Made by a program: the position numbers and the translations under genes. DNA of 64,000 nt, taken from the NCBI GenBank assembly GCA_964596735.1, contig CAZQVF010000005.1:13328-77327 (forward strand), written 5' to 3'. Shown one piece after another: positions 4,552 through 58,826 of the stretch. This DNA is from an uncultured Gammaproteobacteria bacterium (GTDB taxonomy: Bacteria; Patescibacteriota; Patescibacteriia; UBA2591; UBA6264). The notes under the pieces were generated by a model. It did not search any database. It was not told where the DNA came from and worked only from the letters and a program-made list of their open reading frames with translations. The number at the start of each line of letters is the position of its first letter. Within the stretch, counting starts at the first letter, position 1.

Positions 4552-5556
4552 ATGATTGGATTTTTCTATGGCTCAGACACTTATCGTTCAAAACAAAAGT
4601 TAATGAGCTTAAAAAAAGAATTTATTCGTCGAAAAGACCAAAAGGGCCTTAATGTTTCAACTATTGAAGGGGCTAACCTAACCTTAGACGAACTAAGAAA
4701 AGTCTTTTTAAGTACTGGTCTTTTTGCTCAAAAAAGATTACTAATTATCAAGGGCCTTTTATCTCAACGTTTTTTAAAAAAAAATTTAGAAGAAAAAGAA
4801 GAATTATTTAAAGAAATAATAAAAATCATTAAAAAAACGCGGCAAAGTCAGGATAACTCTCTTATTTTCTGGGACGAAGAGATTAAAGAAAAACAGTTAA
4901 ATCCCCTTCAAAAACGCATTTATCAACTGTTAAAAAAAGAAAAATATGCTGAAGAATTTAAATTATTAACAGGACTTGCTTTAAAAAATTGGATAAAAAA
5001 ACAAGCCGCTCAAGAAAATATTCAGATTGAAAACCAGGTTATTGATCTACTTATTAAAACTAATAGAGATAATCTCTGGCTTTTAAAAAATGAACTTGAT
5101 AAATTAATTGCCTGGCAGTTGTTGTCAAAAAAAGCTCAAAAAATTTGTTTGTCTGATGCCCAAAGTCTTGCTCCACCTGAAATTGAACAAGACATATGGC
5201 GTTTAATTGATGCCTTAGGGCACCGAGATAAATTAAAAGCTCTCAAAATTTTGTCTGATCAGTTTAAAAATGGAGTTGAAACCTCTAAAATCATTACTCT
5301 TTTAGCACATCAATATCGTACTATTCTAAGAATAAAATCCTACCTGCAAACTCACCCCGTTATTAATCAATATCAAATAGCAAAAACACTCTCTCTTCAT
5401 CCTTTTGTCTGTAAAAAGGGATTGATTCAAGAAAAAAATTATACATTAGAGGAATTAAAAAAAATCTATCAACAATTATTAAAGATAGACTTTTTAAGAA
5501 AAACTCGGAAAATCGATTCCGAGATGTTATTAGATTTGCTAATTATTAAATCCTAA
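4552..5556 (+). CDS. holA: DNA polymerase III delta subunit
   Basis: Size and the N-terminal FFYGSDTYR pattern are typical of HolA. The remainder is helical. Assigned by pattern recognition only. Confidence 0.7.
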   Translation: MIGFFYGSDTYRSKQKLMSLKKEFIRRKDQKGLNVSTIEGANLTLDELRKVFLSTGLFAQKRLLIIKGLLSQRFLKKNLEEKEELFKEIIKIIKKTRQSQDNSLIFWDEEIKEKQLNPLQKRIYQLLKKEKYAEEFKLLTGLALKNWIKKQAAQENIQIENQVIDLLIKTNRDNLWLLKNELDKLIAWQLLSKKAQKICLSDAQSLAPPEIEQDIWRLIDALGHRDKLKALKILSDQFKNGVETSKIITLLAHQYRTILRIKSYLQTHPVINQYQIAKTLSLHPFVCKKGLIQEKNYTLEELKKIYQQLLKIDFLRKTRKIDSEMLLDLLIIKS

Positions 5557-5823
5557 TTATTTTGACAAACTGTTTATTTTTTTAACTAATCGCGACTTAC
5601 TCCGAGCCGCGGTATTTTTTTTCAAAACACCCTTTTGCACTGCTCGATCAAAAGATTTTTGTAATTTTGCATAAAGATCAACCGCCTCTTTCTTTTTCTT
5701 AGCGGCAATCGATTTTAAAAACTGTCGTTTTAACCAGCTAATATTTGCTTTGGTTTTTTTGTTACGTTCTGCACGTTTTTTTGACTGGCGAAGCGCCTTA
5801 ACTGCTGACTTTTTAATTGGCAT
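5557..5823 (-). CDS. rpsT: 30S ribosomal protein S20
   Basis: MPIKKSAVKALRQSKKRAERNKKTK... is a basic helical protein of S20 size. Confidence 0.92.
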   Translation of the reverse strand: MPIKKSAVKALRQSKKRAERNKKTKANISWLKRQFLKSIAAKKKKEAVDLYAKLQKSFDRAVQKGVLKKNTAARSKSRLVKKINSLSK

Positions 5824-5833
5824 GTTTAATAAT

Positions 5834-6112
5834 TTATAACGATCCTTCTTCTTCCTGTTTTAATAACTCTTCCTCTTGGGCGATTAGCTTGTCCCACTTA
5901 TTCCGACCATTAATCAAAATGTTTAGTCTTGCTTTAAAATCTTCATTAAATTCTCTAAGTAATTTAGAATTTTTTTGAAAAAGATTTAAAAGATCTTCCA
6001 ATGCCTGCTCTGGTAAAGCAGGCAAAAAAACCAGTAAATCATTTTGATCATTAGGTGAGATTTTATTAGAAGAAGTAATGACTTCTCGTAATTTTTCTAA
6101 TATTTTTGACAT
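5834..6112 (-). CDS. Hypothetical small acidic protein
   Basis: 92-aa ORF in the gap-free minus-strand gene series. No recognisable motif. Confidence 0.5.
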   Translation of the reverse strand: MSKILEKLREVITSSNKISPNDQNDLLVFLPALPEQALEDLLNLFQKNSKLLREFNEDFKARLNILINGRNKWDKLIAQEEELLKQEEEGSL

Positions 6113-16997: not shown

Positions 16998-17231
16998 TTA
17001 TTTAATATTTAATTTTTCCTTAAACTTTGGGACATCAAATCCCATAATCATTTCCCCGTCGATTTCTGTTACGGGTACGGCCATCTGCCCTGTTTTTTTA
17101 ATAAAATCATCAACCAGATCCTGATGTTGACTAAGATCAACCTCTTCAAACTCGATTTTATTCTCATTTAAAAAATCTTTGACATGGTGGCAATAAAGAC
17201 ATGATGGTGATGTATAAACAATTATTTTCAT
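16998..17231 (-). CDS. Glutaredoxin-like protein (NrdH/YruB-like)
   Basis: IIVYTSPSCLYCHHVKDFL (CxxC) and VPVTEIDGEMIMGFD. Confidence 0.85.
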   Translation of the reverse strand: MKIIVYTSPSCLYCHHVKDFLNENKIEFEEVDLSQHQDLVDDFIKKTGQMAVPVTEIDGEMIMGFDVPKFKEKLNIK

Positions 17232-17265
17232 ATATTCTTAGTTAATTGGTTATTTACTGTTAGTA

Positions 17266-17420
17266 TAAGAACCTGCTTCGCAGAACCTTGAAATTAAATT
17301 CTATTATATATAAATTAAGGTAATTTAATTATAAGAACCTGCTTCGCAGAACCTACCTGCCGGCAGGCAGGCCTTGAAATTAAATTCTATTGTATAAATA
17401 ATAATGTATTTTAATTATAA
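17266..17420 (+). promoter_or_regulatory. Tandem pair of the dispersed promoter-like repeat (copies 4a at 17266-17332 and 4b at 17333-17420)
   Basis: Two head-to-tail copies with TTGAAA at 17288-17293 and 17374-17379. Copy 4b carries a 20-nt insertion containing the perfect palindrome cctgccggcagg (17356-17367). Both point toward the 3' end of the minus-strand RT gene. Confidence 0.6.
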
Positions 17421-17464
17421 AGATTAGAAAAAGCTCGTCAAGTTATCTTATTTTGTAATAATAT

Positions 17465-18442
17465 TTATTCTACTAAACCTACTTTCTTTCTAAATTTATA
17501 CGTATTTCCGTGAATCAATAGTCCTTGATAAGAAATAACTGTCTGTCGTTTTGGATAATTCTTTAATCTTCTAATTATCTTTCGCTTTGTGGTTGTTCGA
17601 ATCTGTCGATAGCATGGAAAATGTATCCAGCCCAAAAAATCTAAACCCGAAGCATAAGTTCTAATACAAACCTTGTGTTGATGAAGTGTCAATTTAAGTT
17701 CTTTTTGTAAAAATTCAGTGATTCTTAACAATAAACCATTGAGATACTCTTTATTGTCCGATAAAATAACGAAATCGTCGCCATATCTAATATAATATTT
17801 CACTCGCAATTCCTGTTTTATATACATATCAAATTCGTGCATATAAACATTAACGAAAAGTTGGGAAGTGAGGTTGCCAAGGGGCAGACCTATCCCCAAA
17901 CGGCTGGAATAAAAACTAAAAACTACCCTTTCAATCAACCGAATAATTTGAGAATCGTTAATGTGTCTCTTTAATATTTTAATAAGGATTTGCTGATCAA
18001 TGTTAGCAAAAAATTTCTGAATATCGCATTTTAGAATATAACAAGTTTGAGAATTATTTTTTGATACCTTCTGGGCAAAATATCTGAATCTGTTCAAAGC
18101 GCGATGCACTCCCTTGTTTTCTCTACACGAATATACATCATAAATAAACTTTCTATCAAAATAAGGACACAGCTCCTTATAAATGAGATGATGTAATAAC
18201 CGATCACGCACCGTAGCTTTGTGAATATTTCTCGGCTTGGGGTCAGAAATATTAAAAGCCGAATATGGTCCGTGAATATAAGTAAAATTAACCAGAGACT
18301 TATAAAGATCTATTAAATTATCGGCCAGCTTTATTTGAAAAATCATCACATCTTTTTTATGTCTTTTACCACACAAAAAACGCTCCCAAGTCGCTAAGAG
18401 ATTTTCTATCTTAATAATATCAATATATTTAACTTTAAACAT
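17465..18442 (-). CDS. DGR-type reverse transcriptase
   Basis: RT motifs: PRNIHKATVRDRLLHH, ILKCDIQKFFANID, IGLPLGNLTSQLFVNVYM (DGR-typical LGxxxSQ), IRYGDDFVIL (YxDD) and LDFLGW. Start taken at MFKVKYIDI (18442). The ORF could extend to 18511. Confidence 0.9.
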   Translation of the reverse strand: MFKVKYIDIIKIENLLATWERFLCGKRHKKDVMIFQIKLADNLIDLYKSLVNFTYIHGPYSAFNISDPKPRNIHKATVRDRLLHHLIYKELCPYFDRKFIYDVYSCRENKGVHRALNRFRYFAQKVSKNNSQTCYILKCDIQKFFANIDQQILIKILKRHINDSQIIRLIERVVFSFYSSRLGIGLPLGNLTSQLFVNVYMHEFDMYIKQELRVKYYIRYGDDFVILSDNKEYLNGLLLRITEFLQKELKLTLHQHKVCIRTYASGLDFLGWIHFPCYRQIRTTTKRKIIRRLKNYPKRQTVISYQGLLIHGNTYKFRKKVGLVE

Positions 18443-18820
18443 ATGACTACAATATCTGCGCGAGTACCATTGGTGCTTGTTAGAACAAAAAGGGCTTATC
18501 AAATTTGGCACAAAAATTTAGTCAATCTTAATCGACTTGATCGCTATACTATTGGTGCTAAAATCGATGAATATTTTCTATCTTTATTGGAATTAATTTT
18601 TAAGGCCTGTTTTGCTTACGATAAATTTGAAAAACTCTCAATGGTATCACAAGCGATTGGTAAAAACGATTTATTAAAATTCTTTTTACAGATTGGTTGG
18701 GAACAAAAAACCATTAACCATAAAAATTATGGTCTTCTAATACTTTTACTTGATGAAGTTGGTCGAATGCTGGGTGGCTGGAAAAAAAATATACAAGAAA
18801 AAACTCCCGCTAGTAAGTAG
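18443..18820 (+). CDS. avd: Avd-like four-helix-bundle accessory protein, on the strand opposite to RT/TR/VR
   Basis: 125-aa helical protein: RAYQIWHKNLVNLNRLDRYTIGAKIDEYFLSLLELIF...LLKFFLQIGWEQK...LLDEVGRMLGGWKK. It resembles the four-helix-bundle family that includes DGR Avd. Its ATG abuts the RT start (cat|atg at 18440-18445). Confidence 0.75.
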   Translation: MTTISARVPLVLVRTKRAYQIWHKNLVNLNRLDRYTIGAKIDEYFLSLLELIFKACFAYDKFEKLSMVSQAIGKNDLLKFFLQIGWEQKTINHKNYGLLILLLDEVGRMLGGWKKNIQEKTPASK

Positions 18821-18840
18821 CAGGAGAAAAAATTAAATAA

Positions 18841-18960
18841 GTCACAGAAGCAGAGCAGGCAGTCGTTATCATCCCAAGCGTTCTCAAAGTTGCCGAGGTT
18901 GAAATTAAAGTCATCATCCGAGTTGCGGTTGACATTCGGCACGCGGTAGTTGCCGTCAGA
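18841..18960 (-). repeat. DGR template repeat (TR)
   Basis: 120 bp homologous to 19299-19418. Minus-sense reading is rich in AAY codons: SDGNYRVPNVNRNSDDDFNFNLGNFENAWDDNDCLLCFCD. Contains 28 adenines in the minus sense. Confidence 0.9.
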
Positions 18961-19200
18961 CAATGTACAGCCCGCCACCTTTTTCACTAAGGGTAACGCC
19001 AGTCGCCCTCTGTATTTTATTCTGAGCCAAAATGCTCAATAGCACGCTGCACCGACTGATTTAATTTTTTCATAAAAGGTTGCACTCATTTACTAAGCAT
19101 GCCCAGTAAATTCCTGGCAAACTCCCTTTACGAGAATTCGATGATATAAAGCCATGGCCACATATCCAATCTATTATCCAAAAATATTATACAGAAAAAA

Positions 19201-19238
19201 TACATAAAAGAAAAGGGTCCTTACATTGGTAAGAACCC
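19201..19238 (-). terminator. Rho-independent terminator of the DGR target gene
   Basis: Minus-strand reading: gggttcttac-caat-gtaaggaccc followed by ttttctttt. It lies between VR and TR. Confidence 0.6.
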
Positions 19239-19289
19239 AAAGGGTCAAAAAATCCAAAGAACAGGACTAAGAAACCAAGTGCCTAAGCA

Positions 19290-19949
19290 CTAATCGCAGT
19301 CGCAGAAGCAGAGCAGGCAGTCGCTATCATCCCAAGCGTCCTCAAAGGGGCCGAGGAAGAAAATAAAGTCACCAACCGAGTAGCGGTCGACAGACGGCAC
19401 GCGGTAGCTGCCGTCAGAATCGATCCAGAGAGCCTCTTTCTCATCAAACGAGACAGACCAACGGCTCTTTGGCAACTTGTTTTTGGCAAGTTCATAGACC
19501 AGTGAAGCGCCTTGAGCGCCGGCTAAAACAGCTTTCTGAGAATACAGGAAATTTAAACAGTCTTCCGAAGTCACAGTTTCTGTGATATTAAAAACCTTTA
19601 CCTTGAACTTTCTGCCAGGCACGAGCTTTGTTGTCGCTTTGTTAAAGTGCTTATCAGTGATGTCGGAATTGTAGTAATTAAATTCCGAGCCATGCGCTGC
19701 TGCAAAGTCAGTCAAGCGCGTAGCATGGTCGTAACCCTTAGGCACAACAATGTTAAACGCATTGGCCAATTTGAAGCGCGGGTCAGGCATAAACGGTGAA
19801 AGAGCTTGCTGACGTTGTTTCTGTGTCAGATTTAAAAAACATTCATATTCTGGCAAACTCATTTGCCCTTTCTTGATCTTCTGATTGCAATCCATATGCA
19901 GACCAGCCAATTTGGCCGCTTCTGCGCCGATAGATGTCTTATCCATCAT
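19290..19949 (-). CDS. DGR variable (target) protein, unknown family, C-terminal VR
   Basis: ORF ends ...WIDSDGSYRVPSVDRYSVGDFIFFLGPFEDAWDDSDCLLCFCDCD*, with the VR covering the last 40 full codons before CD*. Start at ATG 19949 is preceded by AAGGAG; the ORF track start at 19997 is the alternative. No N-terminal hydrophobic signal is seen. Confidence 0.85.
   Translation of the reverse strand: MMDKTSIGAEAAKLAGLHMDCNQKIKKGQMSLPEYECFLNLTQKQRQQALSPFMPDPRFKLANAFNIVVPKGYDHATRLTDFAAAHGSEFNYYNSDITDKHFNKATTKLVPGRKFKVKVFNITETVTSEDCLNFLYSQKAVLAGAQGASLVYELAKNKLPKSRWSVSFDEKEALWIDSDGSYRVPSVDRYSVGDFIFFLGPFEDAWDDSDCLLCFCDCD
19299..19418 (-). repeat. DGR variable repeat (VR)
   Basis: Base-by-base alignment to the TR gives 15 mismatches. 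14 fall at TR adenines (minus sense) and 1 is a T>C in the invariant GC-rich 3' end. Confidence 0.9.
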
Positions 19950-20015
19950 TTTCTCCTTTGATACCAAGAGTTTAATAATTGACCCCATGCCAATCATTTT
20001 CTCAGTATTGATAAT

Positions 20016-20044
20016 ATTATGTCATATTTTAGCCTTTTTGTCAA
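20016..20044 (-). promoter_or_regulatory. Candidate sigma70-type promoter of the DGR target gene
   Basis: Minus-strand reading: TTGACA (20044-20039), 17 nt, CATAAT (20021-20016). It sits about 65 nt upstream of the ATG. Confidence 0.5.
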
Positions 20045-20092
20045 CACTCCTATTCCAAAAGACTTAAAATTTATATTAATCTAAAATAAAAA

Positions 20093-20160
20093 CACCGCCG
20101 AGGAGAATCGAACTCCTGAGACGGATTTGCCTTTAGCGGAAAACCTGGCGTCCTACAATG
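20093..20160 (-). pseudogene. Decayed tRNA-Glu-like pseudogene (3' two-thirds)
   Basis: Minus-strand reading: aggac-g-ccagg-ttttc... (D-stem 3' half, anticodon-stem 5' half, and the start of a UUC-type loop, as in the intact tRNA-Glu). Disrupted sequence follows. An intact T-arm aggag-ttcgatt-ctcct and acceptor 3' strand cggcggt-g complete it. No matching 5' acceptor strand was found. Confidence 0.6.
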
Positions 20161-20176
20161 CTTAATAAATTAAAAT

Positions 20177-20198
20177 GGCCCCGAGGAGAATTGAGTGA
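20177..20198 (-). pseudogene. Second short tRNA 3'-end remnant directly after the LAGLIDADG-like ORF
   Basis: Minus-strand reading: cactcAATTCTCCTCGGggcca. It shares the 11-nt core ATTCTCCTCGG with the remnant at 20098-20108. Confidence 0.45.
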
Positions 20199-20201
20199 AA
20201 A

Positions 20202-20891
20202 TTATTTTAATCCACTTTGTAATTTTAACGCGTCAATCCATCCTTTAATTCGAAAAGCTATCTTACGACCATGTACACGTAAATCAAGTGTGCCATATGG
20301 CAAAGAATTGATTGGACGTTTTCTGTTGCTCGCTTTGCTTATTTGTTTAAAAATGCGAAAACGACTTTTAGGAATATTAGTTACTCTAGCCCAAAAATTA
20401 ATGGCAGATTGCTCGCTAATATTAGCATGTATTCTAACACATACTTTTAATTTCTCTTCAGGGACTTTAATAATTTCTCGTAAAAAGCGAAGAAACAACG
20501 CAATCATATAAGGATCAGCATTAACAAAATCAACTACATACCCTTTGTTTTTTTGAGCCTCAATTTTATATCCCTCTGCCCAATAAAGAGCATTTGCAAC
20601 TAATAATAACTCATATTTTGACAACGAATGAATTTCATTAAAAGTCTCCTTCTTTATTCTCTGATTTTCAATCCAAATAGCACGTGTCCGTTGCCGATTG
20701 TTTTCAAATAACCCATGTTCTCGAGCAATTCTCGTTTTTTTTTCTAAAAGCTTTTTTGCTGACTTTGTTAGTTTTAAGTCTCTAAACCAAACGCTAAGCG
20801 AGCCCTTGGAAACACTTAAAGTACGAGCTATTTCATTGTAACTTTTACCCTTTAACCGCAACCTGAGCGCTTTTTGATATTGTGGATGCAT
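20202..20891 (-). CDS. LAGLIDADG-like homing endonuclease with N-terminal HTH
   Basis: HTH GKSYNEIARTLSVSKGSLSVWFRDL, then LLLVANALYWAEGYK ... VDFVNADPYMIALFLRFLRE ... YGTLDLRV. Start moved to ATG 20891 because the longer ORF overlaps tRNA-Glu. Confidence 0.65.
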   Translation of the reverse strand: MHPQYQKALRLRLKGKSYNEIARTLSVSKGSLSVWFRDLKLTKSAKKLLEKKTRIAREHGLFENNRQRTRAIWIENQRIKKETFNEIHSLSKYELLLVANALYWAEGYKIEAQKNKGYVVDFVNADPYMIALFLRFLREIIKVPEEKLKVCVRIHANISEQSAINFWARVTNIPKSRFRIFKQISKASNRKRPINSLPYGTLDLRVHGRKIAFRIKGWIDALKLQSGLK

Positions 20892-20909
20892 AATAATTAA
20901 ATATATAAG

Positions 20910-20981
20910 TAGCGCCAAGGGGAATCGAACCCCTGTTACATGGTTGAAAACCATGTGTCCTGACCACTAGACGATGGCGCC
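20910..20981 (-). tRNA. tRNA-Glu (UUC)
   Basis: Manual cloverleaf: acceptor ggcgcca/tggcgct, D stem gtct/ggac, anticodon stem catgg/ccatg with loop ttTTCaa, T arm agggg-ttcgatt-cccct. Confidence 0.88.
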
Positions 20982-21053
20982 ATTATTATTTAGCGCAATC
21001 TTAGCAAAATTAAACGAATTTGTCAAAGAATTAATTTATGTTAAAATAATCTT

Positions 21054-22112
21054 ATGCTTATCTTAGGTATTGAAACATCTTGTGATGAAACAGCGGCGGC
21101 TGTTTTAGAATATAAGCCCTTAAAAAAAGAAGGTCAGTTTAAAGTTATTTCCAATGTTATTTTTTCACAAATCTCAATTCATCGTCAATACGGAGGTATT
21201 ATTCCTGAGGTAGCCGCCAGGGCTCATATTGAAAATATTTTACCAGTGATTAAAAAATCTCTTAAAAATATAGATTATAGAAAAATCGATTTAATTGCTG
21301 TTACTCAAGGGCCGGGGCTAATCACATCGTTATTAGTTGGTTTAGAAACTGCTAAATCTTTATCCTATTCTTGGAAAAAACCATTAATGGGAATTAATCA
21401 TTTACAAGGTCATTTGGCGGCTAATTTTATTGAACATGAAACAAAGAATGTTTTTCCGGCAATTAGCTTAATTGTCTCTGGTGGACATACTGAACTTGGC
21501 TTAATGAGAAAGTCTGGTCATTATAAAAAAATTGGACAAACTAGGGATGATGCCGCTGGAGAATGTTTTGATAAAATCGCTAAATTATTAAAAATCGGCT
21601 ATCCTGGAGGTCCAGTTATCTCTAAAATGGCTGAAAAAATAAACAACAAATCAAATAATATCTGCTTTCCTCGCCCCATGATCAAAACAAATGATTTTGA
21701 TTTTAGTTTCTCGGGACTAAAAACAGCTGTACTTTATTTTGTTAAAAAGAATAGAAATAAACTAGAAAAGAAAAAATTTATTCAGAACATTTGTGCTGAA
21801 TCTCAACAAGCAATTATTGACGTTTTAATTCATAAAACAATTAAAGCAAGTAAAAAATATAAAGCCAAAGCTATTTTTCTAAGTGGTGGAGTGGCCGCCA
21901 ACCAAGAACTAAGAGAACAATTGAAGCTCCATGTTTGTAGATTGCCAAATAGTGTAAAATTCTTTGTTCCATCAAGAAATCTTTGCACTGATAATGCGGT
22001 AATGATTGCTGCAGCCGCCGCCCTCAAATTCAAAAACTTAATACCAATTCAAAGGAAGAAATTAAAAAATAATTGGCAAAAAATAAAAGTAGATCCTAAC
22101 TTAGAAACATGA
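21054..22112 (+). CDS. tsaD: tRNA N6-adenosine threonylcarbamoyltransferase
   Basis: ILGIETSCDETAAAV, NHLQGHL and SGGHTEL are Kae1/TsaD motifs. Confidence 0.94.
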   Translation: MLILGIETSCDETAAAVLEYKPLKKEGQFKVISNVIFSQISIHRQYGGIIPEVAARAHIENILPVIKKSLKNIDYRKIDLIAVTQGPGLITSLLVGLETAKSLSYSWKKPLMGINHLQGHLAANFIEHETKNVFPAISLIVSGGHTELGLMRKSGHYKKIGQTRDDAAGECFDKIAKLLKIGYPGGPVISKMAEKINNKSNNICFPRPMIKTNDFDFSFSGLKTAVLYFVKKNRNKLEKKKFIQNICAESQQAIIDVLIHKTIKASKKYKAKAIFLSGGVAANQELREQLKLHVCRLPNSVKFFVPSRNLCTDNAVMIAAAAALKFKNLIPIQRKKLKNNWQKIKVDPNLET

Positions 22113-58727: not shown

Positions 58728-58741
58728 AAAAATATTTAATA

Positions 58742-58815
58742 TCGGGCTGGCCGGCTCCGCCCCGGCGACCTCATCTCCCCCAGAGATGCGCGCTAACTAA
58801 CTGCGCCACAGCCCG
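58742..58815 (-). tRNA. tRNA-Pro (GGG) with non-canonical T-loop
   Basis: Manual cloverleaf, 74 nt: acceptor cgggctg/cagcccg, D stem gcgc/gcgc, anticodon stem catct/agatg with loop ctGGGgg, T stem gccgg/ccggc. The T-loop ggcggag lacks the TTC/A58 pattern. Confidence 0.65.
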
Positions 58816-58826
58816 ACATTCAAAAT

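Follow-up and report, generated by a model that had tools for sequence, protein, structure and literature searches.

A diversity-generating retroelement of the CPR B3 type in an uncultured Patescibacteria bacterium, with conserved elements beside its template and variable repeats

The stretch of contig CAZQVF010000005.1 analysed here (the window; 64,000 nt, 33% G+C) carries a diversity-generating retroelement (DGR) on its minus strand at 17465-20044. It is very probably a genuine chromosomal DGR of an uncultured Patescibacteria (Candidate Phyla Radiation, CPR) bacterium, active currently or very recently. The identity of the element is explained by the joint presence of an adenine-specific pair of template repeat (TR) and variable repeat (VR), a DGR-type reverse transcriptase (RT) with the accessory variability determinant Avd, and a lectin-like target. 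All of the defining DGR features that could be checked are found: the TR/VR pair, the RT signature, Avd and a C-type-lectin-like target fold. On the minus strand the order is target gene with VR, CTTNG array, terminator, structured leader, TR, stem-loop, inverted avd and RT. The DGR reading of the locus is right; as a DGR the element is ordinary, a further species-level example of the CPR B3 type. What merits notice is the natural evidence of its activity and, beside the repeats, two clade-wide cis elements that appear undescribed: an RNA domain 5' of the TR and an array linked to the VR.

Repeat pair, relatives and VR alleles

A repeat search of the window returns a 121-nt direct repeat with an offset of 458 and 88% identity, consisting of the TR (18840-18960, minus strand) and the VR (19298-19418, minus strand), which forms the 3' end of the target gene. 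The original prediction placed the pair at 18841-18960 and 19299-19418; the pair is real, and its homology runs one base further, to 18840/19298. A base-by-base comparison reproduces the predicted 15 mismatches at the same coordinates. Fourteen fall on TR adenines in the minus (coding) sense, read as T on the plus strand: 18866, 18882, 18890, 18891, 18899, 18900, 18905, 18914, 18917, 18924, 18930, 18935, 18936 and 18950. The earlier counts of 14 altered adenines among 28 and of a single other, silent difference at 18844 (TR TGT, VR TGC; 5 nt from the end of the homology) hold on recomputation. With 28 adenines per 121 nt, the hypergeometric probability of at least 14 of 15 mismatches falling on adenines is P = 7e-10.

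In the frame of the open reading frame (ORF) containing the VR, every one of the 28 TR adenines occupies codon position 1 or 2. Each of the nine AAY codons carries a change; with two GAT codons they make up the 11 adenine-changed codons, the same proportion as predicted. Stop codons are out of reach by adenine substitution in the TR, and full use of the adenines gives about 10^15-10^17 protein variants. The target stop codon, TAG at 19292-19290, lies 5-6 nt past the end of the repeat, in agreement with the 6 nt given earlier.

In a scan of one genome per species, a related RT (37-73% identity) is found at 80 loci, almost all of them in metagenome-assembled genomes (MAGs) of Patescibacteria; the closest homologues are likewise from Patescibacteria MAGs. 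TR/VR pairs with at least 75% of mismatches at TR adenines are found by script in 68 of the 80. These data bear on a simpler explanation, that of an ordinary duplicated gene fragment which diverged by point mutation, gene conversion or selection beside an unrelated retroelement RT. The TR does sit in an open frame (ORF 18727-18987), as such a fragment might. Against this stand the adenine restriction (P = 7e-10), the recurrence of the bias in the 68 related loci, where the TR is always beside avd and RT, the invariance of the TR while the VR varies, and the DGR type of both RT and Avd. The duplicated-fragment explanation is effectively refuted.

The window target protein and three variants of it form one 90% cluster, and nine contigs from other samples carry them. 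These contigs were compared base by base with the window. The source samples are JGI 3300009127, 3300009311, 3300009314, 3300009326 and 3300009405, ENA ERZ23499040, ERZ23499057 and ERZ23499064, and SRR9166041. L008 and L009 are the same as the window, with 0 differences over 8,370 and 3,783 bases, and L007 has 1 difference over 8,466 bases, outside the VR (21746). L001 and L004 (12,708 and 2,629 bases) have 2 differences each, both in the VR and both at TR adenines; L002 and L003 (5,075 and 3,800 bases) have 3, namely the same two VR changes and a single-nucleotide polymorphism at 20851. In L005 there are 16 differences over 12,708 bases, all in the VR, with 15 at TR adenines and one at a TR thymine (19406). 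L006 also has 16, over 2,926 bases; 15 are in the VR, all at TR adenines, and one is at 19255.

Four VR alleles are present among these nine near-identical contigs. Distinct substitutions relative to the window number 36, of which 33 lie inside the VR and 32 of these 33 at TR adenines. The differences between alleles span 19324-19414. The TR, avd and RT are identical in all contigs wherever covered, and 19255 (L006), 20851 (L002, L003) and 21746 (L007) are the sole differences outside the VR. The original prediction named invariance of the VR across populations, together with a disrupted RT in related genomes, as an observation that would speak against a DGR; for the VR the opposite is seen. 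The contigs amount to a natural experiment, in which genomes from different samples are identical save for the VR. This pattern points to recent DGR activity: since VR alleles occur in contigs that are 99.98-100% identical, retrohoming would be more recent than nearly any other mutation at the locus.

The same alleles decide against a decayed or domesticated DGR, in which the TR/VR pattern would record past activity and diversification would have ended. The window VR has kept half of the TR adenines (14 of 28), which could be read as a sign of decay, and the RT alignment is partial in three relatives (L082, L085, L086), where the gene is possibly disrupted. However, across 3-12.7 kb of sequence with an identity of 99.98-100% otherwise, the contigs hold four VR alleles; these differ at TR-adenine positions, and RT, avd and TR are all intact and without change. 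A decayed element is therefore highly improbable.

[quoted passage not shown] It is 25 nt long, has 60% G+C within a 33% G+C genome, and is one base off the TR copy (19302 C versus 18844 T in the minus sense), so that an IMH-like end of the VR and a non-identical IMH*-like end of the TR can be told apart by one fixed base, TGC/TGT. This base difference is kept in all strains, and no allele differs 3' of 19324, in keeping with the invariant GC-rich end described earlier. Relatives likewise have a fixed TR/VR difference within the last 3-6 nt of homology. As the variable span is 19324-19414 and TGC/TGT is never transferred, the GC-rich end would contain the 3' limit of information transfer, which is what an IMH should show.

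No second VR is found within the 64-kb window, and two pattern scans of metagenome contigs with the TR adenines as N return no further alleles or remote VRs. Among the relatives, two VRs per TR are seen in L022, L052, L075, L078, L080, L083 and L089. In L038, L055 and L072 the only VR detected is on the opposite strand, downstream of the RT. In L082, L085 and L086 the best tblastn segment covers the RT partly (5001-5498, 5001-5609 and 5177-5953) and TR/VR pairs are present; these RT genes could be frameshifted or interrupted.

Reverse transcriptase, Avd and target protein

The RT gene lies at 17465-18442 on the minus strand and encodes 325 aa (Pfam RVT_1, E = 2e-21). Its start is most likely ATG 18442, which replaces the GTG at 18511 proposed originally. 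The best solved relative is the 328-aa RT of PDB 8ub7, matched nearly full length (residues 9-305) at E = 6e-40; among solved structures the best group II intron RT reaches E = 2e-17, and retron and Drt enzymes are weaker. We take the 8ub7 RT to be bRT of the Bordetella phage. The LGNLTSQ and YGDD motifs noted earlier are both found, and LGNLTSQ aligns with IGSLTSQ of the 8ub7 chain. DGR RTs bear the signature [I/V/L]GxxxSQ instead of QGxxxSP (PMC7826257). In the alignment the RT also retains the equivalent of Arg74 of bRT, which promotes adenine mutagenesis (PMC7826257). NCBIfam group II, retron and Drt models match far below their cut-offs. By these sequence comparisons the RT is a member of the DGR family.

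The avd gene (18443-18820, 125 aa) is on the plus strand, opposite to TR and RT, and stands head to head with the RT gene; the two ATGs abut (CAT/ATG). Its product passes the Pfam bAvd cut-off (47.5 bits against 40). The original prediction recognised the family of this neighbour and overlooked its inversion. Inversion is typical of the group. Architecture B3, TR-(avd)-RT, makes up 90% of Wu et al.'s 2018 CPR set (PMC5758913), and here avd likewise lies between the TR (18840-18960, minus) and the RT (17465-18442, minus). Avd is detectable in 76 of the related loci; in about 72 of these the gene sits inverted immediately upstream of the RT, and the TR lies on its far side. Inversion of avd is thus clade-typical and no novelty. 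In the three most distant loci, L087-L089, which are not from CPR, avd is on the RT strand.

The target (variable protein) gene occupies 19290-19949 on the minus strand. Its product of approximately 218-219 aa has a helical N-terminal region followed by a C-type-lectin-like domain, and the VR forms its last 40 or so codons, as part of a C-type-lectin / formylglycine-generating enzyme (FGE)-like fold. Starts at 19946 and 19997 are available besides 19949; the start is probably ATG 19946 or 19949, as in homologues of 218 aa. No membrane segment or signal peptide is predicted in the 218-aa protein. The family has no Pfam domain, matches PDB sequences at chance level only, and may correspond to one of the published 'unknown VR' classes. 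Foldseek against PDB and BFVD returns no significant match. Upstream, at 20016-20044 (minus strand), a consensus scan finds TTGACA, 17 nt and TG-CATAAT, with 11/12 matches plus the TG extension; by this match it is a candidate promoter of the target gene.

Cumulative GC skew drops steadily along the plus strand of the whole window (1-64000), which places no replication origin or terminus inside it. By the same measure the target gene is on the G-rich strand. This weakly suggests that the minus strand is the leading strand and that the target points away from the origin, co-oriented with replication. A reconstituted DGR favours a target co-oriented with replication (PMC12875486).

Conserved elements beside the repeats

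On either side of the TR, the RNA has a structure that is conserved and covaries among relatives. The larger part is a 176-nt domain (18962-19136, minus strand) immediately 5' of the TR; it folds into six helices with 47 bp in an alignment of 24 sequences. The VR-TR spacer is strongly conserved in these 24 loci. RNAalifold finds compensatory changes in 35 of the 47 pairs; 96.8% of cells are paired, compared with 37-48% in controls with the partners shifted by 1-3 columns, and 0/500 shuffles reach the observed value. The frequency of G-U pairs assigns the structure to the TR strand.

A covariance model of the domain (R1) matches the window at E = 6e-37. Across 81 sources (756 kb), R1 has one TR-strand match per locus in 62 and none other at E <= 0.01; 60 of the matches are complete, and in two a contig end cuts the match short. 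In the R1-fitted alignment of 62 sequences, 46 of the 47 pairs covary. The domain is seen in the window and in L010-L086, just upstream of each TR. Of the 56 loci with a detected TR, including loci with other target families and loci with the VR elsewhere, 55 have a match whose end lies between -4 and +19 nt from the TR. Rfam, including the RT-1 to RT-19 motifs, has no match at the gathering threshold to the TR-flanking RNA of the window; at E <= 1 over 17200-21100 it returns only the tRNA and two chance-level matches. The published stem-loop survey covered only 40 nt upstream of TRs (bioRxiv 10.1101/2023.10.23.563531). No description of the domain was found in accessible literature; Paul et al. 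2017, the main work on CPR DGRs, may contain one.

About 50 nt upstream of the domain is the hexamer TATAAT (19191-19186). It belongs to a conserved -10-like box, TG TATAAT (19186-19193, minus strand), visible as a TATA.T block in the alignment of the VR-TR spacer from 24 loci. The box, which a two-hexamer scan does not catch, is a candidate promoter of the TR RNA. Other features of the leader yielded less. A small peptide from the conserved ATGAAAAAA was rejected, as the 18-codon ORF of the window has early stops in relatives. RNAalifold pairs an invariant leader AAGUCG with CGACUU in the TR; no claim is made for this pairing, because it has zero compensatory change and its TR side is also conserved as codons. 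The stretches that border the TR on its two sides show no consistent complementarity of the kind that forms the Bordetella 'cPRT stop' duplex.

On the 3' side, 13 nt past the TR, is a stem-loop of 9 bp (CTCCTGCTA / TAGCGGGAG) followed by a U run (18794-18826, minus strand; the stem-loop itself 18804-18826), which overlaps the stop codon of the oppositely oriented avd. Most relatives have it, with compensatory changes in 6 of 8 pairs. In a cryo-EM study of the Bordetella element, 207 of 278 Avd-containing DGRs, CPR ones among them, are reported to have a putative Avd-binding stem-loop shortly downstream of the TR, mostly of 9 bp (bioRxiv 10.1101/2023.10.23.563531). The window stem-loop matches this class, and the idea that the hairpin is a new terminator was dropped for that reason. 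Its U run suggests that the TR transcript also ends there.

The VR is followed by a different set of elements. Between the target stop codon and the terminator is an array of five CTT[A/T/G][A/G] motifs (CTTAG, CTTGG, CTTAG, CTTTG and CTTTG; 19238-19287, minus strand) with spacings of 8, 8, 12 and 17 nt; in relatives the spacing is mostly 8 nt. Motif density per 64 nt is 3.7 in 67 non-redundant stretches downstream of VRs, compared with 0.38 after TRs and 0.42 in random windows, and at least three motifs occur in 85% of the VR-downstream stretches versus 1.1% of random windows. In 1.25 Mb of related loci, searched on both strands, there are 48 strict arrays, and 41 of them lie within 90 nt after a detected VR. 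Arrays also follow remote and inverted VRs, VRs in unrelated target families, and those of the non-CPR loci L087-L089. No description of the array was found in accessible literature, with Paul et al. 2017 again a place where one may exist. The change at 19255 in contig L006 alters the last G of the fourth motif (CTTTG).

A GC-rich inverted repeat (hairpin or cruciform) just downstream of the IMH is found in only 34% of DGRs (PMC5758913). In the window its position is taken by the array, and the hairpin there, AGTGC-TTAG-GCACT (19278-19291, minus strand; 7 nt past the VR and overlapping the stop codon), has only 5 bp. In its position and its restriction to the recipient repeat, the array parallels the hairpin/cruciform that marks the Bordetella VR (PMC3240598). 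The target transcript would end at an intrinsic-terminator-like hairpin with a 10-bp stem followed by TTTTCTTTTA (19205-19238, minus strand; the hairpin itself 19215-19238); relatives carry equivalent GC-rich terminator-like hairpins.

Following the Bordetella paradigm, a stand-alone TR RNA of about 380 nt, spanning roughly 19180 to roughly 18795, would be transcribed from a promoter of its own. RT-Avd would be recruited and positioned by the 176-nt 5' domain together with the 3' stem-loop. The 5' domain, whose closing 12-bp helix lies a few nt ahead of the TR, may serve for RT binding and as the cDNA stop at the TR boundary. The RT would copy the TR to cDNA with random bases opposite adenines, and the cDNA would take the place of VR 19324-19414; direction would be set by the IMH-like end (VR TGC, TR TGT) together with elements that occur after the VR only. 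In this way the ligand-binding face of the 218-aa protein would come in up to about 10^15 variants.

For the two conserved elements we put forward, tentatively and at somewhat less than an even chance, that CPR B3-type DGRs use a rearranged, undescribed cis set. The 5' domain would replace the roles of the 3' spacer RNA (RT binding, cDNA stop), and the CTTNG array, not a cruciform, would mark the recipient. The array could be a platform for pentameric Avd or a host factor, or a site of priming or pausing on the lagging-strand template. Alternatively, both elements might have functions outside retrohoming: the 5' domain as a small RNA or leader in its own right, the array as an element of the 3' untranslated region that affects stability or termination of the target mRNA. 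The array does lie between stop codon and terminator and is thus transcribed with the target, and the 5' domain has its own -10-like box. However, the 5' domain keeps to within -4 to +19 nt of the TR in 55/56 loci, and where TR and VR are apart (L038, L055) it tracks the TR, not the VR. The array tracks the VR in the same two loci and at second, remote VRs, is absent after TRs, and occurs with unrelated target families. Functions unconnected with retrohoming are accordingly possible but rather unlikely.

Several points weigh against the reading of the locus as a genuine and recently active DGR. The case for activity is one of sequence comparison. The nine contigs give a comparison between samples, not read-level polymorphism in one population. 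At 19406, L005 has a T to G change (TAC to GAC) at a TR thymine, a non-adenine substitution. Avd scores 52.6 bits with NCBIfam DivGenRetAVD, under the cut-off of 80, and matches PDB sequences at chance level only. The hairpin after the VR is weak, and similar hairpins are found in the closest relatives only. Lastly, the hairpin and U run after the TR would end the RNA before a Bordetella-type priming/RT-binding region; priming may therefore follow another mechanism than in the paradigm.

As an element, the window DGR is one more among the tens of thousands catalogued. For the question of how DGR cDNA finds and replaces the VR, the array and the TR-linked RNA are mutable candidates for target recognition and template handling. 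Both elements are conserved across the whole clade and can be addressed in existing E. coli reconstitution systems. Through a covariance model and an array search they would sharpen the detection of DGRs in CPR genomes, and they would aid the engineering of compact DGR mutators.

Neighbouring features and comparison with known systems

A tRNA-Glu gene lies upstream of the target gene (20909-20981, minus strand). A copy of its 3' two-thirds, comprising the anticodon arm with an extra 10 nt, the T arm and the acceptor end, is found about 750 nt downstream of the intact gene (20080-20160, minus strand), and a weaker third copy at 20167-20194. Between gene and copy is an ORF of 229 aa (20202-20891, minus strand), which has weak N-terminal helix-turn-helix matches only. 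The arrangement resembles a small insertion by which the tRNA end was duplicated. Downstream of the RT, at 17255-17420, are two tandem imperfect repeats of about 66-86 nt, each with a terminator-like hairpin (TCTGCGAAGCAGG), followed by a palindrome (CCTGCCGGCAGG). Further away, ARAGORN calls a tRNA-Pro (GGG) at 58741-58816 (minus strand), where the Rfam tRNA model is silent at the gathering threshold.

Retrons and group II introns have RTs of the same broad superfamily and a structured non-coding RNA partner. The window RT scores well below the cut-offs for both, and the locus has no intron ribozyme domain or maturase as in group II introns. The TR/VR pair with adenine mutagenesis is specific to DGRs and sets the element apart from both groups. 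Structured RNA flanking the TR is itself a known requirement for cis-primed reverse transcription (bioRxiv 10.1101/2023.10.23.563531; PMC5737381), and a spacer RNA motif of DGRs, RT-10, was described by Weinberg et al. 2017 (PMC5737381).

The prototype DGR, that of Bordetella phage BPP-1 (mtd-avd-TR-brt), shares many features with the window element: an IGxxxSQ-type RT motif, the Arg74 equivalent, Avd, a TR of approximately 120-130 nt, adenine-specific mutagenesis of AAY codons, a C-type-lectin-fold protein that has the VR at its 3' end, an IMH-like end rich in GC and a stem-loop just 3' of the TR. The two differ mainly in what surrounds the repeats. BPP-1 has a 140-nt spacer RNA 3' of the TR with priming and RT-binding elements; in the window this side holds the short stem-loop and U run, and, unlike BPP-1, there is a 176-nt structured domain 5' of the TR. 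The window VR is followed by the CTTNG array and a weak hairpin, in contrast to the GC-rich cruciform of BPP-1, and the target has no tail-fibre context.

The closest correspondence is with the B3 DGRs of CPR and DPANN (PMC5758913). These have the same gene order and orientation, and their targets are mostly small unannotated proteins; the window element shows no difference in kind from them.

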